From positions 1 to 32,348 of the forward strand of contig ML002425.1 in NCBI GenBank assembly GCA_003614675.1: a stretch of 32,348 nucleotides of DNA, in the 5' to 3' direction. A program made the translations under genes and the position numbers. Each line of letters begins with the position of its first letter. The stretch's first letter is position 1. The DNA comes from Dimargaris cristalligena (Eukaryota). The notes beneath the pieces are model-generated. The model ran no database searches and was not told where the DNA came from. It worked only from the letters and a program-made list of their open reading frames with translations. Below, in pieces: positions 7,813 to 31,429 of the stretch.

Positions 7813-10797
7813 ATGGATAAGCCTTTCACTGACACCACCCCCACCATGGTAGTCACGCTTAAGCTGGCCGAGCATTGGTGGGAAGGTGCCATTTTGGCGG
7901 TCGGCTTGGCCCTGCTATCTCAGGTATCTCCTCCTGACGGTTTCCGTATGCATCCGACGGGGATGGCCTTGGTCTACATCACTATCCTCGCTATTTTAAT
8001 TGCGCGTCGCTACCGCTTGGGCCACCACTTGATCAGACCACATCAAAGAGAAGGTAAGACCATATCTGACCAAGCAAAGATAAATAGCAAATATATCACC
8101 CCACTCCACAATTCAAATTGCTTAAAAATTCTAACTTATATTGTATTATCTGACATACATCAATTATATATTCTTTATTGTAGAAGCTTGGATGATTTCT
8201 TATAAATTCTATAGTCAACCGACTGGTCCTGGGATGTCCTGGCTATACACCATCCAAAGAGTAATATGGATAGTATTCATATCCATGTATATCGAGGCCA
8301 CTGCGGTTATAATCGCCGTGTACGCCGACCCTGCCTCGCCGACAGACTGGCATCCCTGGCTCACCTCGGCAATAATTCAACAGGCCACTCTTGCCTTCAC
8401 CGTCGGGGTTTACTATTTCCTGTACTCCGAGGCCGATGCTCAGTCCATTATCCAAAAGAAGTCCGGTCTGCTTCCTCACTGGCTACAACTATGGGTCGTA
8501 GCGGTTGTTTTCCATGCCTGGGAGCTCTACCAGATTATACTGAGTAGCCGGCATCCCAACAATAGCCCCTTTGGCGCTGATTTATTTGCACATTACCTTA
8601 CATTAGGCATAGTAGTCATCAAGCTACTGTTGGCCATTTCCAGCGTAGCTATTCCACTCTTTACCATGTGGTACCACGCTGTGGGGATTTTCTCAGCGGC
8701 CAACTCGCCCCATGACCCAAGGACGTCAGAGGCCGAGAAGGAAGAATCTGTTTTGACGAACAAAAATCCCGAGGATGCCCCTCCTCCCCATTACTCAGTG
8801 TGGGTGGTCTACACCCGAACACTTCGTATTATTTGCAGTCAGGTGCTCACTTTGGATGTTCCCACAGCCTTTCGATTGGCATTGAGCTGGATGTTGGAGT
8901 TCTTTTTACAGTGGGCCCGGGCCTTTAAACCGAGTTGTTATAAGAGCCTTCTCGACTCGCTGTCTAATCGCGAATTGGCCTTCCCCGCTTTAGCCGCGTA
9001 CAGCGTGGCCAGTATATTCAACAGAATGGCCAGTGCGACATTGAGGCGGTATGGCCACCGCTCTTCCACTATACGGTCGTTTATTCTATCAAAGTGCAGT
9101 GTGTTCATGTACTCAATCACGCAGGCCAAGTCAATGCGGTTTCACGCGGAAAGTTCCAACCACAGACTGACCTATACATACTCTGACGCTACCAGAGGTC
9201 TGTACGGATTTGTGGAGCTTTTTTTTGTTAAGTTAGGCCCCGCCCTGTTGGGGATGTTAATGACCATGTACCAGTTTCATTGGTTTTACAATCCTTACTT
9301 TATGCCTCTTTCGTTAGCCATGGGTCTATGGGAACTGGCCACAAAGACTGTGATTGCCCCAGTTATTAACATTGACCGATACTACTGCAGCCTTCAGCGG
9401 TCGCTCGAATCACGGGAGTACAATTCGGCCATCAAATCCTCCAACCTAGTGAAGCAGTATGCAGGGGAGCAGTTCCACATCGATAGGCACCTGGACTTCG
9501 TCACCAAGGGCGGGTATGTATCTGGGGTGGATGATTATACAGATAGGTGTATAACGTTCAAAGATATTCCCCGAATGGCCAAGAAGCTACTCCAATTTAT
9601 AGGCATCGTAATGTGTCTACGTCTGCTAGCCCGTGGTGAAATGAAATCCACCGACGTTCTGTTCTTCGTGTCCCATTTTCACGAAACCTATCGTCCCTTG
9701 ACTTATTTAGCCAATCTCATACGTGAAATCAGTCAAGTATCTGATGACTGTCGAGTCCTTCTACATCTCATTGACAATTACAATGATGTATGCGATCCCG
9801 ATGACGCACCTGCCAATTGGGATATTTATGGAGGGACCATCGAGTTTAAGGACGTATATTTCAGCTACAACCCGAAGCGCCCGATACTCAACGGAATCAG
9901 CTTTAAGGTCCAGGGCGGCACCACTACGGCAATTGTCGGCGAGACCGGAGGTGGTAAAACTACAATAGCGCACTTAATTGCGCGCCTTTACGACGTTAAC
10001 CAGGGAAGTGTCACCATTGACGGGGTTGATGTACGCCATGTAAAGCAAAAGGACCTCCGCAAGTCCATCTCGATTGTGCCGCAGGTAAATTACTGGTGAT
10101 GTAAATAATGGATATATTTGTCAAATTTTCTATAATCTTCTTTTAATTTGAAATTTCCTAATCCCAACCTGCCCAACTGCATACTTTATGCTTGAACTGT
10201 ACTTTCCCCAAACATTCCCCGTCTGCTTTCGATCTATTTGCCCGACTCGTAAACTCGGATTGGAAGAATGCCAAAATGTTGTATACAACCATCCGGCATA
10301 ACATTCAGTACGGGACAGCTTCCACCAACATGAGTGCCACATTGGAAGATGTCCACGAAGCCGCTCGTAAGGCACAAATTCATGATAAGATTATATCCCT
10401 TCCAAATGGCTATGAGTCGGAAATTTACGGATCAGGCATTAGGTTTAGCGGTGGAGAAATGCAGCGCATCAATATTGCGCGGGGTTTGGTACGACCTAAC
10501 AAAATACTTCTTTTAGACGAAGCCACCTCGGCCCTGGACATGATTACCGAGCGGAAGGTCCAGGGGGCGCTCAGAGACGATAATCAGGGAAAAACATGCG
10601 TGGTCATTGCCCATCGCTTGTCGACCATTATTCACGCAGACCAGATTTTGGTTATCCGGGACAGAGGAATCGCCGAGCGGGGCACTTTTGCCCAGTTAAT
10701 TGCCTTACCCGACGGCATCTTCAGAGGGATGTGGGACTCCCAAATGAACATTTCCGAGGGATCCACTATCAAGACAGCCTCGGAAGCTCCCGTGTAG
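7813..10797 (+). CDS. Half-size ABCB transporter, HMT1/ABCB6/ATM1-like, ~890 aa; exons 7813-8053, 8184-10084, 10267-10797
   Basis: Walker A GETGGGKTT, Q-loop VPQ, signature FSGGEMQR, Walker B/D-loop ILLLDEATSALD and H-loop IAHRLSTI. A hydrophobic N-terminal extension precedes the core TMD. Both GT-AG introns join in frame, and VPQ|NAKMLYTTIRHNIQYG matches the family spacing. Start could instead be ATG 7846. Confidence 0.9.
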
Positions 10798-11831
10798 ATC
10801 GCTATCGAACCTGTTTATCCTGCTATTATATATTTTACTTTAACCAGCAGTGCTATTGTTGAAAAGTATGCCCCAGCGGGTAGATTATTATAACCTACTT
10901 CTGACCCTTTATCTTGGTTTATTTAGCTATTCTTTGTCCTCTCATTTTAGCCACTGAAGATGCCCCCTGCTAACTACACTATTCAAAAAAAAAACAGCCA
11001 CGTAGAGGTACTTACCTTCCTCTAGCTATTTTTTTCCTTTTACCCAGTTTTATTGACTTTTATTTAGTATTTCTAATAGGGGCACCTATTAGATTGCCCG
11101 AAGCCCGGGTCGTTACCCTGTCTGAACACTCTTTCAGTTGCCGGCGGCATATTCCTATACTTCCATTTGGATCCCCTTGAACACAATGACTTATATCAAA
11201 CGTTTACTTACACCCTTTTTTTATATGCCCCAGTAGTAAATCAAGGCAATACTGTATTGATGTCCACGTAGTAGGATTTCTAGTGCAGCACTAGGAGTTG
11301 CCACTGTCAAACTTATCAATTATGAACAACTGATAATGTTAATCTATGGGTGCCTGACTCATAGGTACTAGCTGGGGGTGAGTGTATAGGCATGTATTGA
11401 GACCAACTAGATGAATGCAAGCCAGTGAGTATCTTTTCATAGCCTGTGTGTGTGTTTAAACGTGCGGCCAATGCTAAATAGTTGCCCAAAATAGTATTGG
11501 TGGCACTGTAAGGTGTATACTATTATTCAGAGGAGTCGGAGGATCCATAGTAATGGTAGAGCGGTGGAGTCCGTTGAGTGTTAGTCAGGAACTGATAAAT
11601 GGTCACAATGGCACCGAGAGTTGCCAAGGGAGAAATACCACGACAACGAGCCGGCCTATCTAAGTAACGCCTAGGGCACAAAGACCCAGCTCAAATAGAG
11701 ACAATTGACTTGTGCGGAAGTTGTTAAGTAACGTTAGTACCGTGTTGCTTTAAGAGGCATTGGGAAGGGTGATATTTTGAGCAGGGCGAGATACGGCATA
11801 TGCCAAGGTATAATATACCCGCGAAGGAAGA

Positions 11832-12134
11832 CTACTGCCGTATAATCTTTTTGCCAATCCTTTTTGCTTTTTTCTTGACAATATGAGCGGTATCCTTCAT
11901 TTTCTCGGTGGCTCTTTCAGTTCGGGTCTTGGGTATATTCTCACTGGCCGAGATGCCCAGTATTGCGCCTGTCTCTGGGTCTTCATAAAACGCTTCCGAT
12001 TTGTATAAATGAAAACTTCGGCGAGCTAGGTGGTGAGTTGAGGGTTCAGTTGAAAATGCAGAACCTGGCTGGATCGGTCCTAAACCGAAGGTGACGGCAA
12101 GGGCAGCCAGAAATGGCTTCAGTCCGAGCAACAT
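11832..12134 (-). CDS. Small secreted protein (100 aa) with signal peptide, dibasic RR site and Lys/Arg-rich C-terminus
   Basis: ATG in accATG context, hydrophobic N-terminus MLLGLKPFLAALAVTFGLG, HHLARR|S Kex2-like site, and C-terminal KKKAKRIGKKIIRQ. A TATA-like element lies ~210 nt upstream. Confidence 0.7.
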   Translation of the reverse strand: MLLGLKPFLAALAVTFGLGPIQPGSAFSTEPSTHHLARRSFHLYKSEAFYEDPETGAILGISASENIPKTRTERATEKMKDTAHIVKKKAKRIGKKIIRQ

Positions 12135-12343
12135 GGTAATATTTAAAAATGTAAATATATGACTAATAGCTCAATACGAGTGGTAAAACTAAGAGCGAGT
12201 GTTAAACTGATTTATTTGAGGGATGGCAGATAAGTAGGTGATGTAGCATTTGAAAGAAACTTGCCAGATGTAAAATATAAACAAGTGGTTAGAGACTATT
12301 CGAAAATGAGCTGGGGTAAATCTGGAGAGCAAAGGGTAGTGGC

Positions 12344-12352
12344 TATATAATA
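12344..12352 (-). promoter_or_regulatory. Putative TATA box of the small secreted protein gene
   Basis: Minus-strand TATTATATA followed by a pyrimidine-rich leader towards ATG 12134. Confidence 0.4.
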
Positions 12353-13302
12353 CTGAGTAGGTTGGCGGTCCACGTCCACAGAAGAAGGGGGGCGACTAAC
12401 AAGACGTTGGTTCTTCGTGTTTCATTCAGCCGGTTTTCTTTGGGATCCATCAACGAAACTAGGAAGCCTTCCGATACACAAGTGCCATTTAGGGATGATT
12501 GGTTTGACTTAACGAGCCACCTGTAAAAAAACCAAAGATAGCGGACTCCATCTGTACCACCTACCAGCTTCTAAGAAAGCACTCAAGCGATATCTTCTCC
12601 CTGTGCTTTGCCGGATAATACTGGAAGCCTATTAAAAGAACGTATAAGGCCCCCAAAAAAGCATAGTCTATACAACCGGATATATAGAGTTGTTTCATTT
12701 CTGATGGACCATTATCCAGTTTTAGTGGCAGCCGGTCAAACTGCTTGTCGGAAAAGCAGTTAAACACCGATTACTCGTGGATAGCAAATATCCTACATCC
12801 CCAGCGATCACATAACATCCACAATTGCGGTGGCTCCGAAGGAATAATTTACGGCATAAATTTATGAACGGCCCTTTCTGATGCCTCATGATCATAAGAC
12901 CAATATGTATTTTACTTGATATGGGCGTTATTAAACAGCCTTCAATCCCCTAATTATTGGTATATCTCAGAAATGGGCTTTGATAATATTGATTAGTCAA
13001 TACACCCATTATCATGAGTCAGCCAGCCTAGCACTAGGTCTCTGGGATTCCACACCCCATCAAATTCGTGTATCAGTTGCTCCGCACATAATACCACCCC
13101 GAATTTTAACCGATCTTTGACTAGAAGAACTAATACATGTTTGTTTTAAAAATAAATGAAAAGATTGGCGAAAGTATTAGCAGTCCGTAACTTTGGAGCC
13201 CTTTAGGCGGGCGTAGTTTGGCCAGTTTTAACAATAGCACCTACATCACAGTCCAATCATCGTCATAAAGGCAAACCTCGAATGGTTTTACGAATACATA
13301 TT

Positions 13303-16300
13303 TTAGAGAGGCGCCGCCAGTTGTTTGCCAGACTGGGGACTAGGGGACACAAGGATTTCAAGGCCTATACCGGCAATCGCAAATATAACCTTCGCGCCAT
13401 TCTTTTCGTCGGTAATTTGATGGGTAATGGCGCAGGGGTCTACTACATTGGATAAACAGGACTGAACTATACTCGTTTGGAGCGTGGTGTGGCCGCGACT
13501 GCCCACCTCTTGCCAGGTCCACAGGATCATCCGTTGGTCCGTGGACGTAGTGACGATATGTTTCGGGTTAATCATCTCAAGACCGGTAATGGACGATGCG
13601 TGGGCATTAGAGGTCCGACTAATGGCCGCCACTTCGGGTAGATCCGAGGTAGCTGTGCCGGTGTTTAGCAGGGTTAATGCCAGCTGGTTGTCATCACCCC
13701 CGCTTGCAATAAGCAGCCGAGTCTCAGAAGTAGCCGATGCCTCGGTATATTGAACAACCCGCAGGGTATTCACCCCCGATTGGTGACTAGGTATTGTGAG
13801 CATGGGAGCCTCCATGACCAAAGGGACTGGATCCTCAGAGGAGGTTGGCGTGGTACCGCTGGTATGAGAATGAACATTCAAAAGAATAGCTTCAACACAG
13901 GTGCTCACGTCGAAAACACGAATCAGACCGTCGGTGGAGCCGGTTAGAAGCCAATGTTTATCTTGGCCGGGCTTCACTCTGCTAGGAACCGTAATTGATT
14001 CAACCGCCAGAGGGCAGTGCGTATGGTAACGCCTAGGCTCATGCGCAATGAGAAACATGCGCTGCTGAGCGGGAATGCACGCCCACAACCTCACTGTGGC
14101 GTCGGAATAGACGGCAGCAATTAACTGATAAGCGAGAGAGGACGAGGTCGAAGAATTTGCCGATTTGGGCAATTGGAGTACCGAGATATCCATGATTCGC
14201 ACGCCGTTATCAGGACCTGTGGTAGCAATAGCCATTTCGAGACAGTTGAGAGACGAATGGAGGGCGGTATCGGAGTTTCCATCACGGCCACATAGCTGCG
14301 GCGTTTTCGAAGTCACCTGCCAGCACCGTAGTTCTTCACAGCCACCGGCCGTAAACAAATACCGATCATCACCCACTGAATGTGATAACCACGGTAATAA
14401 ATAATAGTAAATCAAATAATAATAAACAATCCATGGTTAATACATTTAAAATAAATACGGCGTCTAACACCGCCTAACAACTGCTTCGATACTCTATGCC
14501 ACATTACTAATAAAGAAACCTCTTCCTTACCTTGGTTCCAGGCCAGACATTTAAGAACTGACGAATGCCGCTTCACTTGGAAAAGGGGTACGGCATTTAC
14601 TACTGGAGTGGATGCGCTACGGTGAGAGTCAATTTGGGATATACGGAGTTGCCCATCCTCACCTCCAGAGGCAACCAGAGGCAGCTCACCCTTACGGGCC
14701 GGTGCGAAAGCGAGACAGCGAATCTCCCGCCCATGTCCTCCTTCTTGGATTAAGGCCGGTCGGCGGGTGGTGGCTACTCCGGATTCGGTTTTGGTAGCGG
14801 GGGTAGCGGTGAAGTAGGCGTGGATCGCATCCCGCCGGAAGAATAAGAAAACGGCGCGGTCCAGGCGTGCATCTGCTGTGTGGAAATACCACCGGCGGTG
14901 GGCCCCCCCACAATTCACCGACAATTGGTCGTACTGGTGGGTGTAATTGTACACGGTAAACCGGCGACGGTAAAACACCGAAGCCAGAAGTTGTTGGTCC
15001 AGTAAAACGAGCCCCTCGATCCAGCCTTTGGTGATCTTCGTACGATGTTCTAGAATTAATTCAAGGTAATGGCAAGGTGAGCCGGGGGATATGTCCGATG
15101 CTAACTTAGGACATAGTGGGCACTCAATTCGCTGCACGGGCGAGGCCAAGTTCAATACCACAGTGGTCCATGGTTCGGCAGAGTCAGGGGTTGGTTGTGA
15201 AGCAGAGGCTCTTTGGTGATCTGGCATGTTCGTAAGCGGGCCCGTTCGCAGCCGAAGCTGACGGACCGCTCCATCCCGCCCCCCGCTGTAAACCGTGACC
15301 CATCGGCTGCCGGGGGTCGTGGCCGTAGTTTTAGATTCGTCTTCGGGAAGATCTTCACCATCGGACATATCACTGTCGACGGTATCACCTTCGACCACCG
15401 CAGTAGTGGATGTGGAACTATTTGCATCGTGAGGCGCAATGAATACACTGGTGACAGCGTCCTTGCCGTGCAAGCGGCGTATGTTTAAGCACGGCCGTAA
15501 TTGAAGCACTGTTTTAGGGTCTTTAGCAGTGGAACACCGATCAATAGACTCGGGTCGGAGTGCGGAGGGAAGACTGTACACCACCAGGGCTCCTTGGCGG
15601 GATCCCAATAACAATAAACCAGTCGTATAGTCGAGGGCAAAACTAATGGGTAGCGTATTCGAAGGGAGAATTACATGGGCCATTAAAGTGAGAGTCGCAG
15701 GAGAGGATAGGTTCAAACGAAGCCATTGGGCAGGCTGATTGAGTACGAGGGCGAAGATATCAATCTGAGTGGGGTCATTCGAGGACGTTTGGACATTTAG
15801 GTCAAAGATCTGTTGACCAGGGACAACAGGGAGTCGAAGGACATTCCAGTGGCTATCCTGGGAGTCCTGGCGATAATATACCAGGGCCGTGCCTTGGATG
15901 GTTCCACAGACCACTACGCGGCCGTCCCGACTAGAGGCCAGCATGGCATAGCCGGCAATTTCCGGCTCATACGCCACGAGTGACCAAAGCCGAGTGATGT
16001 AGCTGTAGTGGAGCAGATAACCATAATGGGAGGCCACCACCATGGCCCGATCAGGCACATAAGTGAAATTCCGGATAAAATCGGGTCTAAGCGTGCGGAC
16101 GTCGTGGGGAGTGGTCTGATAAGTGGCGAGGGCCGGCAATTCAATAGGGGCTTGCTGATAATCCGCCGAGTCGGCCCCGACGAGTCGCTGCCGAACACTG
16201 GCCAATGACCACAGGCGAATACCACCGTCGCCGCCGCCGGTGGCCACCCACGACTGGGTCGGATCAACGGCCACACCCCAAATACTCTTACCCAGATGAC

Positions 16301-17535
16301 CGCGCCAGCAGGCCAGGGAGCGCGGCTCCTGGTCCTCGGCCTGAAACTGGTTCGGGTCGAAACTCCATACGCGACACGTTGAGTCTTCCGAAATACTGAC
16401 CAAGAGATCAGATAGAATCAGACAATCCCAGACCCGAGCGGTGTGACCGAACAAGGTGACCGGCTGGACCGGTTTAGAGAGCTTATGGGGGTCATCAGCG
16501 GAGGGAAGTCGCCAAACTCGGACGGTCCGATCGTCCGATACAGAAGTCACAATTGACCCATCCGCGCTGAACCGCATACCGAAGATGACCCCTTCATGAC
16601 CCGCTAGGATGTATTCAACGGGGGGCCCCTCGGGGATGGACAAGTGAGTGTTGGAGAGGATCCGCCAGATAAGTACCTGATTAAAAACGGTCCCTGACGC
16701 TAAGCGCAGAGTAGACCGGGCATGGCCAAAAAATCGGGCCGCGTAGATAATGGCCTGCACGGAGCACTGGATCCGGTAGACCGGTTTCCCGGCGAGATCC
16801 TGGACGGAATAGATGGACACGTAGTTATGGGCAAAAGCCAGAGCTAGTTCGACGGGCTCATCCGAGTTGGGCGCAAACAGCCATTGCGTATCGTGGATCC
16901 AGTCTTCGAACTGGTAAATGGGGGCCGGAATGGAGACACTAAGGGGTGAATTGAGGAGCGGGCCAGGTGTTCGGGATAGTTCGACGATTCGTAGGGATTT
17001 GGCACCATAGACGGCCACGGTCCAGCGAGTCCGGTCACTATTCTCAACCAGGGCCAACCCGTGGATTCGAGTGCTCCCGAGAATATTGATATTAAATAAA
17101 TACCGTTCCGTTTGCGTATCGAAGCAGCGCAGATAGGGACCTGTACCAATCAATAGCCAGTCCTCGGTGAGGAAACGCAAGCTGGTAACCGGTCCGAGAA
17201 AGGCTAGCGACTGGAAGGCATCCTTCTCTCCGTCGAGGGGGTTAGAACGAAGCACGCAGGTCTATTGGCCGAGGATATTTAAAGGGATAATATATTTAAA
17301 CAGGTACCAGATAGGTATTAGACAGGTAGGTCTGTTAAAGGCATTAATACATACAACTATGGTAGTAATTTAGCCGCCCAGGTCGTGGGACTTCTTTCTT
17401 AGAAAAGCAACTGGCCATTATTTTTCCTAGACAAAGGTTAGGAGGGGGAGAGGTCAAACAGTAAGCAGCAATGCTTCCACTATGCCCGGATCCCAGGTGT
17501 TTGGGTATGGCATCCTTGAGGTTGAAACCTACCAT
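13303..17535 (-). CDS. RTT10: WD40-repeat protein WDR6/Rtt10 (Trm734) family, ~1270 aa; exons (17535-17533 tentative), 17261-14531, 14375-13303
   Basis: N-terminal GPVTSL..LLIGTGP and motifs LASGTVFNQV, GHEGVIF, SVSDDRTVRVW, GHTARVWD, CGGAHRRW, HGREIR, HQSGVN, SGGDDN and AHASSITG are typical of WDR6. Intron 14530-14376 (GTAAGG...CAG) joins the two ORFs in frame. The ATG-only first exon is tentative. Confidence 0.88.
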
Positions 17536-17858
17536 ATCCGTAAGGAAATGCACCGGTCGAATTTTAAGCGTATACCTCGCTGGGCTTAAATGAGTAACGA
17601 GTGTTTTAAAAGCTCGGCGGTTGGAGTCGTCCAAGGGAATGAGTGAACTAAGAACAAAGCAAACTATTTACAGAAACCTAAGGAACTTGTGCGAATGCTC
17701 CCGATGCGCTCGAACCATGCTCTATTCGGTTACGGGGTCATCGAGTCGAATTCTCGGGCTTGTTGGACAATGGCCAATGTCCCCGAACTTGGGGAAGGGG
17801 TGTGGGGGTTTGTCATACGAGGGGTATGGCAATTATAGTGCGTCGAGGATGATTTAAA

Positions 17859-17870
17859 TGACTCACGTGA
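17859..17870. promoter_or_regulatory. Overlapping TGACTCA (AP-1/Gcn4-type) and TCACGTGA (bHLH E-box) motifs in the divergent RTT10-YTM1 promoter
   Basis: Sequence TGACTCACGTGA lies roughly midway between the two divergent starts. Function is inferred from known consensus motifs. Confidence 0.45.
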
Positions 17871-18274
17871 CTATACATTCCGAATTAACTTCTAGTCTTC
17901 TGGTGGTCAACTAACTGTGAGGAAAGTCTGGAAGTGCCACTGGCACTATTTTACTGAAAGACACGATTAGCAAAAAAAATAAAAAAGGAGGAAGTATTGC
18001 TTAGGAGATAAAACCAATAATTTGACTAAACCACTCTACTGTATTTGCCATGGCGAATGTATAGTTTAGTTTACAAACTCCAGACCCACTTGACCTTACA
18101 ATATATATTTTTACTACCCTATTGAAAGGCCAATTTGAGATTCAAGTCGCATTAAGTATATACATATCTCTCTTTACCGCCCGACTCGATTACCCAGCCG
18201 GGACTACCCATTTCTCCACCACGTTTACCTCTTCAAAACACCCATACTTTCTCCATAGAGCCCATTCTCCTGCC

Positions 18275-19876
18275 ATGTCGACCCAGGAATCCCAGGTTCA
18301 GGTCCGCTTCGTGACCAAAAGCGCGAAGTACACCGTGCCCGATGTGCCGCTTCTGGTGCCCATTGTACTCAAACGCGACGGCTTATCGGAGCTAGTGAAC
18401 TTCTTGCTCAAATTAGAGACCCCCGTTCCGTTCCAATTCCTGGCTGGGGGTCAGCTTCTGCGTACCAGTCTGGCGTCCTTTATCAAATCGCAGCCCGATT
18501 TGTCGGCGGAAAATATTCTCGAAATTGAGTATATTGAATCCATGGTGCCGCCCAAGCGGGTATCCGAATACAAGGTTGACGACTGGATCAGCCAAGTGTG
18601 CACAGCCGCTAATGGGTAAGTATAAGTGACCTTCTCTATTTTGATTATGGCAATGCCCATAATTTAACCCAAACATTCCACGCCCACACCCGTGCTACTC
18701 GATAAAATATATCCTCTTCTTGAAGCTGGACTTGGCTGCCTATTGCATACTAACCTTCCAGCCATGTATTATCTGCGATTCCCTTTCACTCCCATTAGTG
18801 CGGTTTTGGTAGGCTGCTACGACGGTACGGCCAAGGTCTATGACCAGAGTTGCCAGCTCATGTACAACCTGGCGGCCCATCGGTCGGCGGTCAAGGCCGT
18901 CGCCTGGATGCACAGCAATGCCAAAGACTGGCAGGCCCCCCAAACGACGTTCCTTACCGGTTCCCAGGACTGCTCCATCATGGGCTGGTCCCTTAACCAA
19001 ACTACCCCTACAGCCGGTGACGTAACCGCGACGAACGAAAAGGGCCCCGAGCCCTCACTTCAGGCCCGCCCGGCCTTTGAATGCCTGGGCCATACAGGAA
19101 GCATTGAGTCTATCAGTGCGAACCGAAGCGGCACGCAGTTTGCTAGTGCGAGTTCGGATGGTACTATCAAGCTGTGGTCCACACGCGAACATTCGGGCAA
19201 GTCCCAGGCCACGGGTGGCGAGAATGAGTCTGACGAAGAAAACGAAGACGCCGAGGACGATACCGAATTCTTTGAAGTCAACGAGACGAAGCGTCGCAAG
19301 CTGAACGGATCCGCCATACCGCTGAAACGCGCCCTCTGTTCGCTCGTGGGCCACAACGGGGCCGTCAATACGGTGTGCTACAACACTCAGGACGAGCGAT
19401 TCCTGTACAGCGGTGGGTTCGACTACTCCCTGCGGACCTGGGACGCCGAACGCCGGGTGAACCTGAACACGCGCCCGGGAGATAAGGTCATTCTGGACCT
19501 GGCCTATTCGGGTCTGTCGCACCTCATCGCGACCGCCAATGCGGACCGTCTGATTCGGTTGTGGGATACCCGCGTCCAGGAAGGCGAGCCCGGCGTCAAA
19601 TTAACCCTGTCGGGCCACCGGGCCTGGGTATCGGCCGTGGATTGGTCCCCTACCTCCCCGTTCATGTTGGCGAGTGCCTCGCACGATGGTACAGTCAAAA
19701 TATGGGATGTGCGTAGCCCCACTGCGTCTCTCTACACGGTTAATCCGGCTGCCCAAGATATGGAGGAGAGTGGGTCCCGCAAGGGTCAGAAACTATTGAC
19801 CGTAGACTGGTCCGGTAGCACGCTTGCTAGCGGTGGTGAGGAGGGTGTGTTGCGGTTAACCTCGGTGGAATATTAA
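18275..19876 (+). CDS. YTM1: Ribosome biogenesis protein Ytm1/WDR12, 472 aa; exons 18275-18615, 18799-19876
   Basis: N-terminal NLE/ubiquitin-like domain (QVQVRFVTK...LSELVNFLL...PFQFL...LRTSL...SAENILEIEY), DDWIS, GCYDG and WD40 repeats ending WDVRS. Intron GTAAGT...TAG joins in frame. Confidence 0.93.
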
Positions 19877-20246
19877 ATCCGCCCATCTATAATCTCACTT
19901 TTCGCTTCTAAAAAATTATTTCTACTGGGCATTTTGGTTTTGCCTGCCTTCTTTTTGCCGCATTCCATGTTAGTACGATCGGTTTATTTTCAATAAAAAT
20001 TGAATGGTTACTTTGCTTTGCTTTGATTCAATTTGGTTTTTATTACTCATTTATCAATTATTATTATTATTTTGGGGGGGAAGGGGTTACCCCATTTTAG
20101 GGGTAGACATCAGTTGAAATCCGTGATATTGAAAATACCGAACAGTCTAGTCGTAGGACTCGCCGAGTTATACATTAAACTGGGTGCAGTGATGTTACAA
20201 AAGGAAACTACTTTTAGTCAATAGCATTAAAAATCTGCCAGTTTTT

Positions 20247-21335
20247 CTAAAAAGAGGCCGTCTCTTCGCCATTAAAGTGCTTGTGCAGCACTAAGTTCAG
20301 TCGACTGGCCTGCTCTAAGGGCAATACGTGACCGGAGCCGGAGAACACTAAAATAGGTGCCGCAAGATGGGATGCCAGATCCAGCGAGTCAACTGGGGGC
20401 ACCATTCGGTCATCAGTGCCGGTGAGCACCAGGCAGCGGATCCGGGGGTGTTTACTCAGGGGTTCGAGGCAAGCGGCGCTGGTCGAGTGACGCAGACAGG
20501 CCGATAGTTGGCCAAGAAACCCGTTGAACGTTTGGAGACGGGCAAACGGAGTGCGGATACGGCCCCCTTCGCGAACAAAGTCCAAGTTAGTCCGTACGCG
20601 ATTGGGGGGGTAGTCCGGGTCGACGGCCGAAGACTGGTACGGCTGTTCGAGCCATTTGGACGGAAACAGCAGAGAATTGGCCAGGTGGAATTTGGCCTCT
20701 AGGTCCTGGGTAAAGGCGAGTTTGAGAAATAGGTACATGGTGCTCCAGGGGAACAGGACACGGCCGGGGGTGGTGCTCAGAAAGGCAAAAGTACTAAACC
20801 GGTCCAAGTCGGCCACTCTGGCCAATTCCTGGATAATCATGCCGCCCAAACTAACCCCCACGACATGGACATCACTGCGCCAGTCCAAATGGTCGAGGAG
20901 GGCTAGCGTGTCGTAGGCCATGGCTTGGCTAGTGTAGAGCCCACTCGGGGTATCCGACCAGCCGGTGCCCCGGTTATCGAAAAGCAGGAGGGTATACTCT
21001 TCCCCATTGGTCGAAGCGTTGGCTCCAGTGAAATGCTTAATTTGCTGTTCCCAGGACACCAGGCCCATTCCGAATCCACCTACGAAAATGGCCCGTTTGG
21101 GACCGCGACCATGCACCTCGTAGTAAAGTCGGAACTTCTCGGGCGGGGAGCTTGACTCGACGGCCGGGTGGTGGATAGCCGGGTCTACGGTGAAGTAACC
21201 CTGCTTTTGGAGCGAATCAATGAAAAGCACTTGGGGTAGACGGGGCAGAAGCGGTTCGGAGCCGGCCTCCATCTCGGTTGGGTCCGGAATCAGTTCCTCG
21301 TGGTCCCGGTCACCGGGGCGGTTAGAATGTGCCAT
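20247..21335 (-). CDS. Alpha/beta-fold hydrolase (362 aa)
   Basis: LYYEVHGRGP, FDNRGTGWSD, nucleophile elbow GVSLGG, acid residue in TGTDD and His in GSGHVL. Single exon. Confidence 0.9.
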   Translation of the reverse strand: MAHSNRPGDRDHEELIPDPTEMEAGSEPLLPRLPQVLFIDSLQKQGYFTVDPAIHHPAVESSSPPEKFRLYYEVHGRGPKRAIFVGGFGMGLVSWEQQIKHFTGANASTNGEEYTLLLFDNRGTGWSDTPSGLYTSQAMAYDTLALLDHLDWRSDVHVVGVSLGGMIIQELARVADLDRFSTFAFLSTTPGRVLFPWSTMYLFLKLAFTQDLEAKFHLANSLLFPSKWLEQPYQSSAVDPDYPPNRVRTNLDFVREGGRIRTPFARLQTFNGFLGQLSACLRHSTSAACLEPLSKHPRIRCLVLTGTDDRMVPPVDSLDLASHLAAPILVFSGSGHVLPLEQASRLNLVLHKHFNGEETASF

Positions 21336-21722
21336 TCGGAGTAGTTGACGGGGTTACGGTTGGGTCTGACGATAGGGTGTGGATAGGCAATCACGGGGAA
21401 ATAAGGGGAAGCGATAAAGGCCTCCTGAAATAGCGGAGTGGTTGGTAACAGAGCTGCGGGAACGTCTAACTCTATTAAATAGCTAAGTAGCCCATACTCG
21501 TTGCTCAAAAGAAGCGTAGTAAACAGTGGATACTGTAGCGGGGTAGGCCGGCTTGGCGACCCTAAGAATAGGGGGGCGGATACAGACGACTGCGTCATAC
21601 CCTATAATGTGGGCATAGAGTCCAGGGAAATTAGGTGCTAAAATGCCCAGAAGAGTTGTCATGCGCATATACAATTAAGAACCACTCAGGTGATTTGATA
21701 GGAAGGGCTTCACATGCATATA

Positions 21723-21760
21723 ACGGCCGCGGTCAATTAATGCGCGCAATAAGCGGCCGT
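21723..21760. promoter_or_regulatory. GC-rich inverted repeat in the divergent hydrolase-PEX1 promoter
   Basis: ACGGCCGC (21723-30) and GCGGCCGT (21753-60) flank a spacer containing the palindrome TGCGCGCA. Confidence 0.35.
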
Positions 21761-22160
21761 GGCAGAATAAGGGAGGAAGTGTTGTAAAGCCATGAGAAAA
21801 GAATTTGCACTAAAGCCCTCAGCAGAAGCCAAGTCAATAGCAGAGGCAGTGACTGTGAACGCCTTCACGGCATCAGTATGCTAGTTGCCTGTGGTGGTCC
21901 CAACAGAACAGTAAAGTCCACTCGGTTTCAGCTGCTTCCGTTGACTATAATATATCCTGTTTTCCGCCCAGTTGACTTTTCAAGGTATTCTTGACTTATT
22001 CCCACCTGGCTTGGTGTGCTTTCTCGCTTTTCTCTATCGTTTGCATTGCCTCTTTATATTCAGCCAGACCACACCCACCTCGTTCAGCAACGCTCAAAAG
22101 GCAGTACACCCAGTGATTCCCTACCCACCCTTCTCCGGACCTAACCTATTTTACTCCGCC

Positions 22161-25100
22161 ATGTCCGAACGCGCGACTGTTCATTTATCCCCCCTGCGCA
22201 CCTGCTTTGTCAATTTGCCTCCTGAATGGACTCAGCATTTATGGGAAAGCAGAATTGTCAAGGTAAGCGCACCAGGTCTGCCTTGTTTCGAAGTGCATTC
22301 TCTTCTGGGTCACCATGAACCCTGAGTGGGCCCCAAGTCACAGTCTTGGGCCGAACCCGAGCCTCCCGAATACAGGTTCTCCGTATCCCCCCCATTGCTC
22401 ATATATCGGCCACTAACCCACACATACCCTCATTTACATTGACATTATGTCCCCCACACCCCCTTCCTCACACGCCCCAAGACGGTGGGTCCCTTTGCGG
22501 CCACGTTCAGATTGAGCTGGGAGGTCCACCAGCTTCAGCCGGAAACTGGCGCCAGCGAAAAAGTAACCCGGTCCGCCCTCGTTAGCTGGTCGGGGCATAG
22601 CAGCCAGGCGGCGGGGTCTACGGCCCCCGACCCCGCCACCTGGTCCGCTAAGGATCATTCCCCCCACACGATTGAGATTGACACGGCGTTGGGTAAAGAA
22701 CTCGGCCTGACCTCGGGGGTTCAGGTAAATGTGACCCTCGTGGCCAATATTCCGCCTTGCCGGAGTGCCGAGGTCGAGCCGTTGGATAGCGACGACTGGG
22801 AGATCATTGAGCTTAACGCCGGCTTGATTGAAGAAACCCTGCTAACCCAGGTCCGACTGATTTCCGAACACCAACCCATCACGTTCTGGGTCAACCACTC
22901 GACCGTCATTCGGCTTCGTACCAGTAAGTCGGCCTTTAACTTAGTAATTGGGAAGGAACCGGCCTTAATCCAAATGTGCAGTGTCTGTAGTCACACGCGC
23001 CATTTATAGCCGCTAGCTTATCAATCTCCAAACCATGTAAATGTATTCCCTTATCTATGTCTACTCTCCCTCAGAACACATTCAACCCGAGAGCCCTTAC
23101 GCTCTTTTAGGCCACGACTCCGAAATTGCCATTGCGCCGAAGGTCCGCCGTCCAAGGGCCCCAACCGCCGCACCCGAAAACACCGACCCCGACCAAATCT
23201 TTTTAGATCGCTGTTTAGTATGTAAGGCCCTGGATTTCCAACCCAACCCGGAGATCAGTACCGGTCCAATTAGGCCAGGAGAAAACTCCTCCAAGTTAAC
23301 CGACAGTGAGGTAAACCTAGCCAACCCTCTAGCATTCGACACGATACACGTGCATCCGTCCTGTCTCCGGCTATTCGGCCCGACTGCCACGCTCAAGTCA
23401 CGCGTCTTTCAAGTAACCCCCGGTAAACGGCCGCGGATAGTTCTGGGATCGAGTGATTTGCCGGCCCTTTGCCACGTTTACCTGGTTCCGGACTCTATGG
23501 TAGAGCCCTTCTACGCGGCCATCCCACCGGCGGTGAAAACTACACTGGGAATCAATCGTCTGGATGAAATCAAAATCCGACTGGCCCGCTCCCTTTCTCC
23601 GCCTGTACCCTCGTCGATCAGCATAACCCCTGTACCGTTAGCAGATGATGGTGCCGCGGTGGGGAAAGTCGCCAGTACAACCCTTGATTACACCGGCCTA
23701 ACCGACTGGTTTAAAAGCAAGTTATTAACTATGGCGCAGGACCGCGAAAACGATCCAATTCTGACGGATGGTCAGATTATTGACTGTAGCCAGGATTATG
23801 GTCGGCTAGCATTACACATATCCCTTGACGGCCCGAATGGTGATCACAAACGTCCTGGAATCAATAATCGATCACTGGGAATCCCGCCCGACGACGAAAC
23901 CGACATTAATAAACTTGACCGGCCATACATCGTTTTCGACACTCGGGGTATTGAGCAGTTGGATATCCGCCTCAGTACTTCTACGGAGGACCTGTTACCG
24001 CTATCCCCGGGGCCCCTGTCGGCACCGATGTCACCCCCGCATTTAGGGGGTATCGATTCGTTTCTCTCTGATTGCCAGCATTATTTGGAGAAAGCCTACG
24101 AACTAAAACAGCCAGCGGTGACGGTTAGCTGCCCCGATGCCCCCCTGGGCCTTCTTGTGTGTGGCCGTGCAGGGGCGGGTAAGACCTCGGTGTGCCAATG
24201 GCTCGCTTATCATTTAACAGGTCCACAGAGTAGCCAGCCACTACTGGATCATGTCTGGATTGACTGTCGAGATATGGGTCAACACCAACCTGCACCAAGT
24301 GGCGACGACGGTCGCCCCCCACCGCCGCTGTCCCCGATGGCCGATCTGAAACTTAATTTTGAACATGCCGTTCAGCGATCCCCCACGCTTATCGTACTAG
24401 ATAATTTAGATACCCTGCTACCCGCTGTCACGGAACTCGGGGAGGGGAACGCAAGTGTGTCATCCACCGCCAACAATGCGGCGGAGACATTTATCGTCAT
24501 GGTATCCGATGCGGCCCGTCGCCATTCATTCCTCCTACTAGCCTCCGCCCACGACAAGCCCCGCCTGCACAAACGAGTTACCACATCCTCGGTATTTAGC
24601 AAAGCGATCGAGATTCCACCACCCAGCCGACTGCAACGGCGGGATATTCTGGCGGCACTACTCGAGGGACCGCGCTTCACAGCCATCCGGGACACCGTGG
24701 CTTTGGCCCCTGAGGTGGATCTGTTGGATTTGGCGTACCGGACGGAGGGGTACCTACCCCAGGACATGAAGGCCCTACTTGATCGAAGCTACCGAGAAGC
24801 CACTGTGCGGTACGCCCAGCAACAGTCAGGCGGAGTGAAACAGGCCCTTCCCGGAAGACCGCACCACCAGTATGGCAATAGCCGAAAGTCGCGCAAGAAT
24901 AACACCGGGGATAAGCCAAACCAAACCGGAACCACAGGTATACAGGTCACGATGGTCGACTTTGAAAAGACTCTCAAGGGCTATACTCCGTCGTCGCTGA
25001 AAGGCGTAACCCTACATAAATCCGATGTGCAGTGGAAGGACATTGGGGGGCTGTGGGAAACGAAACAGGCCCTTATTGAAACCCTTGAACTGCCGGCCAA

Positions 25101-25311
25101 GTTCGCCAAAATCTTTGACAAATGCCCGCTCCGTCTCCGATCCGGGTAAGTAATGGCTATATCTATATTAATTTATTTTACAATAGTGGTGGTTTCGATA
25201 TTCAAGTGGATGAGTAAGGTTATCTGGGAACATACCTTGAGCAATGTTCTGTTTGGAATCCCACCATACCATTACTAATACCGCGTTGCCTGCTATGGAT
25301 TATGGATTTCC

Positions 25312-25346
<35 letters not shown>

Positions 25347-28300
25347 TCACGCTTTGTTATCTGTTCCTTTAGCATGATATGCATGGCGTAAATAGAATTC
25401 TGCTGTACGGTTATCCGGGCTGTGGGAAAACCCTCTTGGCCTCCGCCGTGGCCAAAGAATGTGGCCTCAACTTTATCTACGTGAAGGGCCCCGAAATCCT
25501 CAACAAATACATTGGTGCTAGCGAGCAGTCGGTCCGGGATCTTTTCAAACGGGCGACCGCGGCCAAACCCTGCGTGCTCTTCTTCGACGAGCTGGATTCG
25601 GTCGCCCCACGGCGTGGCCATGATAACACCGGTGTCACTGACCGAGTGGTCAACCAGTTTCTGACCGAAATGGACGGTGCCGAAGGCCTCTCAGGAGTTT
25701 ACGTGCTGGCTGCTACGAGGTATGTCCCGGCATTTATTTGTGCTTATGGCATCTGTATATTCTCATTGCTTAAGTGCCAGTCACCCATGTTTTCGTGGAA
25801 TTGAAAGCCCGTGTGCTGAACCATAGGCCCCCCTGGCATTTGACGTACACATGCTGTGGCTTCCGACCGGCTAGGGTGGTTGTTAGTGGTACCATATGCC
25901 TAGCTAACTTCGGCTGACCAACCAACTGGACACTAATTTAATATTGCATATCTTGATTCGTCCCATGATCACCCCATGCCTTCCTTCCTTTAACCGACCC
26001 AGCCGTCCTGACCTTATTGACCCGGCCCTTCTACGACCTGGTCGTCTAGATAAGGCGCTCTTCTGTAACCTACCCGACCGAAGCGAGCGGTTAGACGTAA
26101 GTGAGAGGCATCATGTGATTGGACCTGATTTGTGTAAAAACAAAGCTCTCACCTGATGTAAACGAAGTATAATAATGGTCCGTGGACCTACCGTTGCATT
26201 TTGATATAATAAGCGTGTTTAACCTCTCTCTGTGGTTTTTATCTTTTCTGTACTTTTACACCGACCTTTCTTTTGGCCGCGATTAAATGTGTGGGGTGTG
26301 GGGAACATGTGATTTTTGTAATAGATATTAACCAAGGTGGCCCGTACGATGCGCATGGATGCCGACGTTGATCTAGACCATTTGGCTGATCGTACCGACG
26401 GCCTAACCGGGGCCGACCTCCAAGCCGTTTTGTACAACGGCTATCTAGAGGCGGTCCACGGGGCTTCGGGTGTCGGGGCCGGTGGCAACTCTGGCGAAGA
26501 GCAGCCAGATGTTTCTGAGAAGGTGAATGGAAAAATGCCCGAGACCAGCGCGGATTTTTCTCCACCATCGTCTCCGGAACCTTTCACTGCTGCTGCTACC
26601 GCGACGTCTCTAGACTTGGGCCAACAGTTCGAGGCGATCCAAAATGGCCAGCTACAGTCCATGAATCGCCAAGAAAGGCAGACTATTGCTAATAAGGTAA
26701 GTGGATCGTTCCCCTTTCACACACACACATACATATATACATTTTTCTAAACTCGCGGGGTTCCCGAAATAACTTACGGTGCCCAAGTCGGTCGACCGCC
26801 TTGCTGATCCGCCACAATAGATAGTGTAACCGGTTGGGGGGCAGGGAGTAGAAACTATTAGCTCTAGGGAAATACATTTAGCCGGCCATCTCGCCACGCG
26901 TGCCTGGCCAGGGTGGGGGGTATGTGAACTTACGCTTTAATACTATTTATGTAAACGTGCCGTTTTTTCATTTGACTTCAGATTGAACGACTAGTAAAAA
27001 GTATGGAATCGAACGCCATCGACTCCCCAACGGGTCGGAACGGATCAGGCCACGTCGGCGCACCATCATTGGGTAGTCCGATTCCTGTAAGTTACAACAA
27101 CATCAATCGCCTTTCGAGGGATTGTATGGCCTGGGACTATTGTCTATTTTGCTACTGATCCTAGCTAGGATCGTCAAGTAGGTGACGTATGCACCCAACC
27201 AATGAGATAGCCAACGAGAGGGATATTGGATAGCTGCATTCTACCAATGGGAACTCTTATTAACGACTTGCCAAATTTGCTTCTGCCTTTTTGTGGGTTC
27301 AACCTATTTACGTACCTGGTGGGGTTTAAACTGTATGCTTGTGGATATGTTGGTGTTACTCTGATGGAAATCAGTCCATTTCGAACGCACACCTCCGAAA
27401 ATCGCTCACCCAAGCCAAATCGTCGCTCAACCCCGACGAAGCCATTCGTCTACAGACTATGTAAGTATCATCATATCAAGTAACGATTTAAATTGGATGG
27501 AGAGGAACTAGTTGTATTTTTTCTCGTTCTGCATGATTCATTTATTGTTCCTTAATGGGGTTGGGTACATTAAAGTGGAAGTGTAATAGAATAGATTAGC
27601 TAGCCTATCTATTGGGATCACGTGGGTGGGTGGTTGTGAGAGGAGGGGCCTGGGCTTAAGAGGTACCTGTGACTGAGGAAGAGAGAGGGGCCTATGACGT
27701 ATGGGCGGGGTAGAGTCAGTCAGTGAGTGATCAGAACCGTTTTTTAGGGGCGGATACTGGTTATAGTAGGTGGTTTATCCTGCTGCTCACTCGATATTAC
27801 GCTTATGGTAATGGCGGGAGTTGTTTCAACTGGCCCTTCCCTTTTTCCCATCTCCTTCACACCGCCACCTCCTCCCTCCTTTCTCCCACGACAGGCCTTA
27901 TTATAGGATGGGCGAGTGGGCGGGCTTCTCCCATTTTATCCAACTACATTTAGGGAGGGAGATTATTGGCTAGAACTAGGCAATGGAGAGGAGAGAGAGA
28001 GTGAGAGAGAGAGAGGAGGGCTTCCAATGTGCCATCCCCACCTTCTTCTCCTAGGGCCTAGCCAATGGCTGGCATAATGAGGATTCCCCCTTCCTCTCTA
28101 CCCTTCTTCTCACACACACCCGGGACTTTCTCTCTCTCTCTCTCTCCCCTCCCCATTTCGGCCATGGTTTGTGAGAGAGTGAGAGGTATAAGCGATGCAC
28201 TCGCCGATTAGCCCACATAATCACCCCAGACTTCGGACCACTTAACTTACATAACCCCATTCAACCACGCCTACGCAACGGATTCCGCCACTTGCGTTTT

Positions 28301-29183: not shown

Positions 29184-30625
29184 GCATCCTTACCCCGCCA
29201 AGGCCCAGTAATAGTGGGGGTTAGGGCATGACTTGGTTTTTATGGTACGACGCTCTTGTAGCCAAGAAAGACCAGCGGTGTAGGATAGATATATTCTAGT
29301 CCCCCCTAGTCTCTTTAGGAGTCTCTCGCATTCCCCGATTTCCGCAACATTCCCACCCCCTTCACCCCTTCCCTTTTCTCTTCGTTCCTTCCATGGACGA
29401 GAAGGGCACGAGCGAATGGTTGATGGTTTGACGAGCCTTTTCGGCGGCTGGCTATTGGTCATCCACCCCACCACCTCAGAGAGCGAGGGGGGTGGGCAAC
29501 GAATCAGCACCAGCCCCGGTGGCTCGTTTTTACACAGGCAGATGCCACAAAAGGAAGTCCCAGATATAAACGGAAGGTCATATGGGCTACAGGATGATGT
29601 GGGAGCGCGGAAATCATTTTTGATTTAAGCATGTAGTTGAGGTGGGTGCATGTTAGTATAATATAAATATATATATATATATAATTGTATATACTCCGTA
29701 TAAAAAAGAAATTTATAGCTCACTTCCGGGGCCGCGTTCGTTCTATTGGACCGGGCACCGGAAGTTCCTCCATCCCTCCGGCCTGATACACCCACGCTCT
29801 ATGCCGGCTCGGATAGCACACCATCGGGCAGAGGACTGCCAATCCCCCCACCCGTTGCATTCGGCGTGATTATTCCTTCACAAAACAATAGCATCAGGAG
29901 AGGGCCATGGGGACCGCCGATTGGGGGGGTTTCATGGCCCTAATTCCCTTACTCACATTAGGACCCCTCACTTAGTTGCATAGCCACTGCATATCTACCC
30001 CCCTCCCTCCACCGTATATAGGTAAGTATGTGGTGGCGACATTGGTCTGTTTGGAAAGGAATGCCTGCTGCCAGATATGCATTTTTAAACGACGATGACG
30101 ACGACAATGATGATGGTGCTGGCTGGTATGTGGGAAACATAGGGAGAGGGATACATCCCCTAGTGTGATGGGCGTAAAAGATCACCGGTATTATGTTATA
30201 GAGGGACCTTATTATATGGACGGAACGGGGGAGGGGGTGGGTAGGGGGTATATACTTTTGCGGAACAAACGGCAGTCTTGTTGGGAGAATGTCCCTCCTC
30301 TCTATTAAGGGAAATAATACGGGGCGGAAGAGAAAGGCAAGGAAACCTCTAAATGACCCACGCTATGGCATGCCATGGAAGCGAACCAGAGAAAGCAGCG
30401 ACGGTGGTTTATAATGTAGGGTAGTAGCGGTAGAGTGGCTTTTGGTTCGCATCAGCCCAGTTGGTCGGGGATTGGTGAATTCGGCGGGGCAGTCTATACT
30501 ATACTATCACCTGATACCGCCAGTCAGCGACAACCATGCTGCAGTCGGTGGGGGGAGGGCGACGCGTACGAGTTATACGTCCGTTTGGTTTGCTTGGCGT
30601 TGTTTCGTTTGTTAGGGTTAGAGGG

Positions 30626-30665
30626 TACTACTACTACTACTACTACTATTATTATTATTATTATT
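30626..30665 (+). repeat. Compound (TAC)n(TAT)n microsatellite
   Basis: About 7 TAC units followed by about 6 TAT units. Confidence 0.9.
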
Positions 30666-30902
30666 GCCCTTTCGGGTCGTGTACGTCGGCTAATGGTATT
30701 TCCGATACTATTGGGACTGGCCGTGAACACTCGATTTCTTGGCGGGACTATATACATGGTCATTTCTCCCTTAAAATCGGGGATTCCAGGTGGCTTCGTA
30801 ATGGTGTACGACGGGGTATACGATGTAGCGTAAAGCAAGGGCTTACGACTCGCCCCCGTTTGGGAGGGCTGTGTGGGGCGGTGAGGTGCCATCTCGCGCG
30901 GA

Positions 30903-30923
30903 TGTGTGTGTGTGTGTGTGTGT
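30903..30923 (+). repeat. (TG)n microsatellite
   Basis: About 10 TG units. Confidence 0.9.
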
Positions 30924-31429
30924 ATGGGGGGAGGCATCTTGGTCGATTTTTTTTTTAAAAAAATGTGATTGGGAAACGCCATACACTATTTCGCCCATAG
31001 TATGGCGTACTCGTGTGGCTTGGCTTGCTACAAAATTGGCGAATTTAAGGGATATTAATATTTCCGATAGCGATACTAATACTGACAGTACTAACAATTG
31101 TCATCATCGTCGGTATCCTTATTATAGTAATAAGTAATGCCTCTGATATCATATACATTGCCCAGCCGGGATTTATAATACCCATCGGTGGCCGCTATCC
31201 AACACAAAACCATCACCCCTTTGCCCTAGTAAATCCCCAAAAATGTGACGCATAGCATATTAGTCGGACTGGCCTAGTTTTTCTTTACCCATGATCTAAT
31301 GGCTCATTAGTGCATTTAACGTACCCCAGCCACTGGTGGACTGCTAATTTATAGTACCCTCTTTTGATTTCAATTGTCAATATATTGTCAATAATATATA
31401 AAAGGATCTCTGGTGTCGTCCTAGTTTGA

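Follow-up and report, generated by a model that had tools for sequence, protein, structure and literature searches.

The telomerase RNA (TER) of the fungus Dimargaris cristalligena may acquire its 3' end by a splicing reaction that stops after the first step, at an AU or a GU donor. We consider this the best explanation of a locus on the minus strand of the stretch analyzed here (the window: 32,348 nucleotides, the entire contig C218 in an assembly of 30.65 Mb), and put it at about an even chance. Dimargaris, an early-branching mycoparasite, belongs to the Zoopagomycota, a placement that agrees with its listing in papers. The original prediction, made from the window alone, held that the 3' end of a candidate TER resembles a spliceosomal-cleavage module with a non-canonical AU 5' splice site. 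The telomerase setting on which it depends is strengthened by TERT, by array units in the candidate template and by a pseudoknot candidate, all described below; the poor pairing of both donors with U1 counts against cleavage. Its choice of the AU donor agrees with the position of the hexamer and with five of the six letters of the Aspergillus nidulans donor, but U1 pairing is worse there than at the GU alternative. The reading is plausible and has more support now than the original prediction could show, though this comes from one genome.

All motifs of the predicted module (hairpin, U-tract, AUACGG, GUAUAU, UACUAAC and first AG) are present on the minus strand where they had been placed. The terminal hairpin (29722..29765; stem 29765-29758/29729-29722, pair probability 0.98-0.99) sits just 5' of the U-tract AAAUUUCUUUUUU (29702..29714), an Sm/Lsm-like site. 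We identified U1, U2 (two copies), U4, U5 and U6 (two copies) small nuclear RNAs (snRNAs) in the Dimargaris genome, and the tract matches the Sm sites of the species' own snRNAs in sequence, beginning like that of U4 and resembling those of U1, U2 and U5; the mature 3' end of the candidate RNA is predicted at or near 29702. The candidate AU donor AUACGG (29696..29701) follows the tract directly, as in Aspergillus, and is followed by the alternative GU donor GUAUAU (29689..29694), which has no G at +5. The branch site UACUAAC (29652..29658, branch A 29653) is perfect, lies 48 nt from the AU hexamer and is fully complementary to Dimargaris's own U2, with extra pairs on both sides. The first AG after it, a possible acceptor, comes 66 nt beyond the branch A, at 29587..29588.

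A pattern fitted to this module found one site in the window and none in 100 shuffles, and two sites in the whole 30.65 Mb assembly versus three for a reversed control. A looser U-tract/donor/branch pattern, modelled on Aspergillus TER ends, found 16 assembly sites versus 37 in the control. Because of this last count the module alone is not above chance: it is real but, by itself, shows no enrichment, and the case for a telomerase RNA 3' end is made by its context.

For comparison we deduced ordinary introns from reading frames and used 11 distinct ones (from 15 lines, of which three were dropped as their anchors failed and one intron appeared twice). All 11 donors start with GUA, and ten carry G at +5. 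In seven introns at least six of the seven branch-site letters match; the branch-to-AG distance is 45-133 nt in six of them, and one of the seven branch sites scored is perfect. The caveat of the original prediction, that long branch-to-AG distances are common in ordinary introns here, was thus borne out; since six of these seven introns have 45-133 nt between branch and AG, the 66 nt of the candidate is within the ordinary range and not diagnostic, and we rejected distance as evidence. Ordinary introns with a long branch-to-AG distance occur in the window (8055-26980) and at another locus (L013), and the YTM1 intron, whose branch site is perfect, passes over a CAG that lies closer to it.

In duplex with U1, the AU donor reaches -1.8 kcal/mol and the GU donor -3.7 kcal/mol, so that the AU donor is the weaker of the two; each of the 11 ordinary donors tested pairs better than either (-5.6 to -11.9 kcal/mol). 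AUACGG shares five of six positions with AUACGU of A. nidulans. Minor-spliceosome AU donors have the consensus AUAUCC, which the hexamer misfits, and we rejected a donor of this class. A model in which U1 binds the GU donor and U6 selects the AU donor was likewise set aside as speculation, as inspection of the U6 sequence showed no better pairing in the AU register. Competition between donors is described as decided by U5/U6 in a preprint (10.1101/2025.06.06.658024). Judged from the sequence, the odds between the AU and the GU donor are near even.

These donors also bear on two other readings. The locus could be a telomerase RNA whose 3' end is made by termination, or by an endonucleolytic cut and trimming, with no spliceosome, as in Saccharomyces cerevisiae or Ustilago, the donor and branch motifs being incidental or part of an ordinarily spliced intron. 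U1 pairing below all 11 ordinary donors fits this reading, as do the Ustilago TER, which has an Sm site and no donor, and the AT-rich microsatellite after the U-tract, where such motifs arise easily; we nevertheless hold it to be quite unlikely, given that a U-tract, an AU(A)(C)G hexamer and a perfect branch site 48 nt on reproduce the Aspergillus layout and that a perfect branch is found in just one of the seven ordinary sites scored. Less probable still, in our estimate, is an unrelated lncRNA or other unannotated transcript from which an ordinary GU-AG intron of 108 nt (29694-29587) is removed, with a promoter role for the telomere-like motif upstream. Both the intron length and the 66-nt branch-to-AG distance are ordinary in Dimargaris, and one of the competing template-like motifs precedes an opposite-strand protein gene, like a promoter motif. 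Against this, GUAUAU lacks the G at +5 present in ten of 11 donors, no downstream coding exon was recognized with Pfam in ten frames overlapping or flanking the candidate, and this reading leaves an Sm-like tract at the end of the exon without explanation.

The reading we prefer, first-step-only splicing of a telomerase RNA, draws on the telomerase context. Dimargaris encodes TERT (PF12009 match, E 3e-38, contig C696). An assembly-wide repeat search found one telomere-like array only, irregular and about 460 nt long (C2089, L030, 55-512), which lies near the contig start and reads as the C-rich strand. Split at GGG, it yields 49 tokens, among them TTAGAGGG (16), TTAGTTAGGG (nine), TTAGGG (eight), TTAGTGAGGG (five) and TTAGTTAGAGGG (two), which suggests that the Dimargaris telomere repeat is non-canonical and heterogeneous. 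On its inner side the array meets a decayed non-LTR retroelement, with an A10 run at the junction; its outer 55 nt recur on C15, there running into telomere-like microhomology. From this one contig we infer a chromosome end with a chimeric join. The retroelement belongs to a decayed family seen on C2089 (L030, 520-1250), at L016 (1459-1535) and at L313; a short conserved piece of it abuts the C2089 array and precedes telomere-like repeats on C1213 and C2004, and the family is possibly a telomere-associated element.

About 900 nt upstream of the module, on the minus strand, 30626-30611 match the array and, with a 4-nt 3' alignment flank, make up the candidate telomerase template (30607..30626). 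This single-copy stretch holds both the 8-nt and the 6-nt array units and has the terminal repeats that realignment for either unit would require. The match is independent support, because the array could not have been known when the original prediction was made. The 15-nt core of the template has ten genome sites, five of them inside the array; a vertebrate-type 11-nt template has 111 genome sites and hence no proof value. A compound (AAU)n(AGU)n microsatellite (30665-30627, minus strand) lies directly 5' of the candidate template, and similar repeats occur elsewhere in the genome.

A copy-and-reanneal model was used to score 62 template-like contexts against 456 nt of array. Under a tolerant rule, which allows one mismatch and was written after the window's flank had been seen, the window template leaves 13 events unexplained, seven of them due to the TTAGTGAGGG unit, and falls in a top tier of six contexts (12-13 events) with C140, C172, C760, C1626 and an array fragment on C1213; five of the six are single-copy, and all contexts below this tier leave at least 23 events. 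A strict re-annealing rule, applied to the window, C140 and 17 further sites, leaves 37 events for the window versus 14 for each of C140 and C172. Because the strict rule favors these two rivals, the template alone does not single out the window; its combination with the module does. Among 17 module sites (16 generic and one from the fitted-pattern genome search) the longest array match within 1.5 kb upstream is 16 nt at the window and 12 nt at the next site, and none of 124 background tiles has an array match above 12 nt. Across the five single-copy sites of the top tier the 3' module was found only at the window. C172, C760 and C1626 are without a module, and their pseudoknot candidates (-3.1, -6.3 and -15.0) are weaker than that of the window; none of the rival contigs is in the assembly module lists of either the fitted or the generic pattern. 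The template-like site on C140 (L012, 1501-1520, plus strand) fits the array under both rules, and that contig ends about 200 nt past it, which bars assessment of a downstream module.

Telomere-like 12-mers and 13-mers are enriched outside the array (41 and 27 sites versus 7 and 1 in controls). They may be binding sites for Tay1/Tbf1-type proteins, and several lie in non-coding DNA beside genes. The candidate template could therefore be a dispersed protein-binding motif, in which case the module might be one of about 16 random occurrences and intergenic motifs would have come together by chance; the true telomerase RNA gene would then lie at another locus, such as the C140 site, or in sequence absent from the assembly. 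The enrichment of the dispersed motifs, the lack of enrichment of the module and the better fit of C140 and C172 under the strict rule all count toward such a coincidence. We judge it unlikely, however, as the expected number of generic modules in the 1.5 kb downstream is only about 0.002 for the five top-tier sites and about 0.03 when about 68 sites are counted (hand arithmetic), values that are floors because the patterns were partly chosen after the locus had been seen, and as a pseudoknot candidate lies in the same interval.

That candidate is H-type, lies 270-670 nt after the template and was found by descriptor search at -21.3 kcal/mol, a level reached by five of 300 shuffles and by one of 26 real non-coding tiles. 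Its 10-bp stem 1 (30293..30337; 30337-30328/30302-30293) is accompanied by a U-rich loop (30327-30314), its 8-bp stem 2 pairs 30306..30313 with 29944..29951, all on the minus strand, and its last loop is 342 nt long. Large insertions in this loop are known (PMC3592445). Here the loop holds a long arm (29992..30254, minus strand; arms 30254-30233/30013-29992), the top inverted repeat of the region, for which alternative pairings exist and a constrained fold favors other partners. A structured distal domain (29789..29941, minus strand), with an 11-bp helix (29854-29844/29835-29825), occupies the position expected of a CR4/5-like domain. A possible hairpin with a 4-nt loop (29825-29812) shares 29825 with that helix and lies outside the minimum-energy fold.

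No canonical P6.1 (4-bp stem and NUNGN loop) was found in 29690-31000. In its vertebrate and filamentous-fungus type P6.1 is a 4-bp stem with a 5-nt NUNGN loop; the loops of S. pombe and Saitoella may have 4-5 nt, and budding yeasts are described as lacking the loop (PMC3592445). Given this variation, the absence of P6.1 lowers the subtype claim and not the telomerase-RNA claim. On the 5' side of the template only long-range pairing is predicted, using the (AGU)n microsatellite, at the position of a template-boundary helix. Global folding is not significant (z -0.26; 37 of 100 shuffles as good), and its stability was rejected as evidence. The lack of a canonical P6.1 and a folding z near zero are further points for a chance assembly. 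On the minus strand, a palindromic 12-mer at 30376-30365 has a near-identical counterpart at 29824-29813, and a similar 10-nt motif comes after both; the two can fold as separate local hairpins or pair with each other over a long range as a single 12-bp helix.

Between 27.5 kb and the end of the contig no gene was recognized in searches of ten overlapping or flanking frames against Pfam, where none had a match above cut-off, and against Rfam. The Rfam search of the window and the candidate region gave nothing relevant and no match to a curated telomerase RNA; a genome search with RF02462 gave no match under a filter stricter than usual, so that absence is not implied. A TATA-like box (30748..30754, minus strand) puts the predicted transcription start at about 30730-30716; an identical TATA core precedes the modelled start of the Dimargaris U1 gene by about 37 nt. 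From this box a telomerase RNA of about 1,020 nt is predicted, from about 30720 to 29702 on the minus strand.

The snRNA genes U1, U2, U4, U5 and U6 have in common a 9-nt upstream element and a TATA-like box, a combination that we take to resemble the plant USE/TATA snRNA promoter. The element lies about 73-86 nt before the gene at U1, both U2 copies, U4 and U5. At the candidate its best match is five of nine letters, and the candidate is absent from the 26 element-plus-TATA sites; it is therefore probably not expressed as an snRNA, and we infer that an RNA end beside the Sm site would need another maker. A telomerase RNA under an snRNA-type promoter was also considered and rejected, as none of the 26 sites has a downstream template-like match above 11 nt. 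A short A-rich downstream box is common to U1, U4 and one unnamed locus. The snRNA promoter element also precedes a U4atac-like RNA (C427, L295, 1581-1712, plus strand; 35.6 bits, E 0.0019, below the Rfam gathering score), a hint that a minor spliceosome is present, and a region of about 160 nt on the minus strand of C9 (L281), which has C/D-box-like motifs and a downstream A-rich box, gave no match in Rfam and is possibly an undescribed small RNA.

A narrow metagenome scan for homologues gave no matches. A scan with the generic module gave at least 117 matches, full flanks being available for 80; among those listed none resembles the candidate (best E 0.085), and the three of 117 with an 8-9 nt template fragment upstream were judged to be chance. 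Scans of viral sequences gave chance matches only. We found no validated telomerase RNA from Zoopagomycota or Mucoromycota in a literature search that mostly covered papers outside subscription, so that absence from print is unproven; the sole mention found for these phyla is a speculative, ciliate-like candidate from Lichtheimia without homologues (PMC4133162). Dimargaris is not named in the available main text of PMC12449055.

Taken together, the locus is probably a telomerase RNA gene. RNA polymerase II would make a longer precursor with a terminal intron, and the template would write irregular TTAGAGGG/TTAGGG/TTAGTTAGGG repeats. U2 would bind the perfect branch site, the first splicing step would cut either at 29701, the AU donor, or at 29694, the GU donor, with trimming back in the second case, and the second step would fail. 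The released 5' piece would then be guarded on the U-tract by Sm and later by Lsm2-8, by analogy with S. pombe and Aspergillus. If the locus is a telomerase RNA, spliceosomal cleavage is the probable origin of its 3' end; for the candidate RNA as it stands, such cleavage is an evenly balanced proposition. If cleavage occurs, the AU donor is about as likely as not to be the one used, and cleavage specifically at the AU donor is on the whole somewhat unlikely. The full proposal, a fungal telomerase RNA from beyond Dikarya that matures through only the first splicing step, at an AU-type donor, is doubtful.

If true, spliceosomal cleavage of TER 3' ends would not be confined to Ascomycota. Such processing has been reviewed for fission yeast, Candida and filamentous fungi (PMC4993307); a 2025 paper presents it as exclusive to Ascomycota, arising after their split from Basidiomycota (PMC12506658), a claim that a case from Zoopagomycota would directly test, while Kannan et al. 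argued for multiple origins (PMC4299874). Spliceosomal cleavage, possibly with the AU donor too, would predate the split of Zoopagomycota and Dikarya and would have been lost in Ustilago and Malassezia; in an alternative history it re-arose by convergence. Two features would be new variants: donors of AU and GU type in tandem, and a template that stutters to make an 8-nt repeat based on TTAGAGGG. The locus predicts an unusual telomere repeat in Dimargaris and can serve as a seed for finding telomerase RNAs across early-branching fungi.

The closest known layout is that of Aspergillus and Neurospora, in which AUA(A/C)G comes directly after a U-rich Sm-like tract, with a branch site farther downstream (PMC3603654, PMC4299874). 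The module geometry of Aspergillus TERs equals that of the candidate, and the A. nidulans donor is AUACGU (PMC3603654); A at +1 blocks step 2 in an A. niger intron (PMC4299874). The two known genera have U at +6, whereas AUACGG has G there and therefore weaker U1 pairing than AU-type donors, and their branch site is GCUAAC instead of UACUAAC. The candidate further differs in a second, GU-type hexamer 7 nt downstream of the AU hexamer, in an RNA of about half the length, in the lack of a NUNGN P6.1 loop and in a host outside Dikarya. With the donor different at +6, its sequence does not establish a place for Dimargaris in the AU-type TER family.

S. pombe TER1 is resembled in the fully U2-complementary branch site, the long distance to the first AG, the Sm site at the predicted end and the irregular telomere-like repeats, the telomere repeats of S. 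pombe being heterogeneous (PMC4299874). Its donor is the canonical GUAUGU, which the candidate lacks, and the 66 nt from branch to AG are ordinary in Dimargaris, so that the S. pombe-type signature of GUAUGU and an unusually long branch-to-AG distance is absent here; since long distances are normal in this species, distance may not block step 2 here. A GU-donor route with the perfect branch site would still be fission-yeast-like: trimming would finish the end, as in the TER1 of S. cryophilus and S. octosporus, where the GU donor lies 14 and 27 nt past the Sm site as against 7 nt in Dimargaris, and where GUCAGU over-stabilizes U6 pairing, the Dimargaris GUAUAU instead being without G at +5 (PMC4299874). 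The TERs of Ustilago maydis and Malassezia (PMC9564094, PMC12506658), for which an origin from coding transcripts is reported or proposed, have 3' ends without donor and branch motifs, unlike Dimargaris, where no coding frame was recognized and both motifs are present; they resemble the candidate in an Sm-like site near the 3' end and in the order of template, pseudoknot and distal domain.
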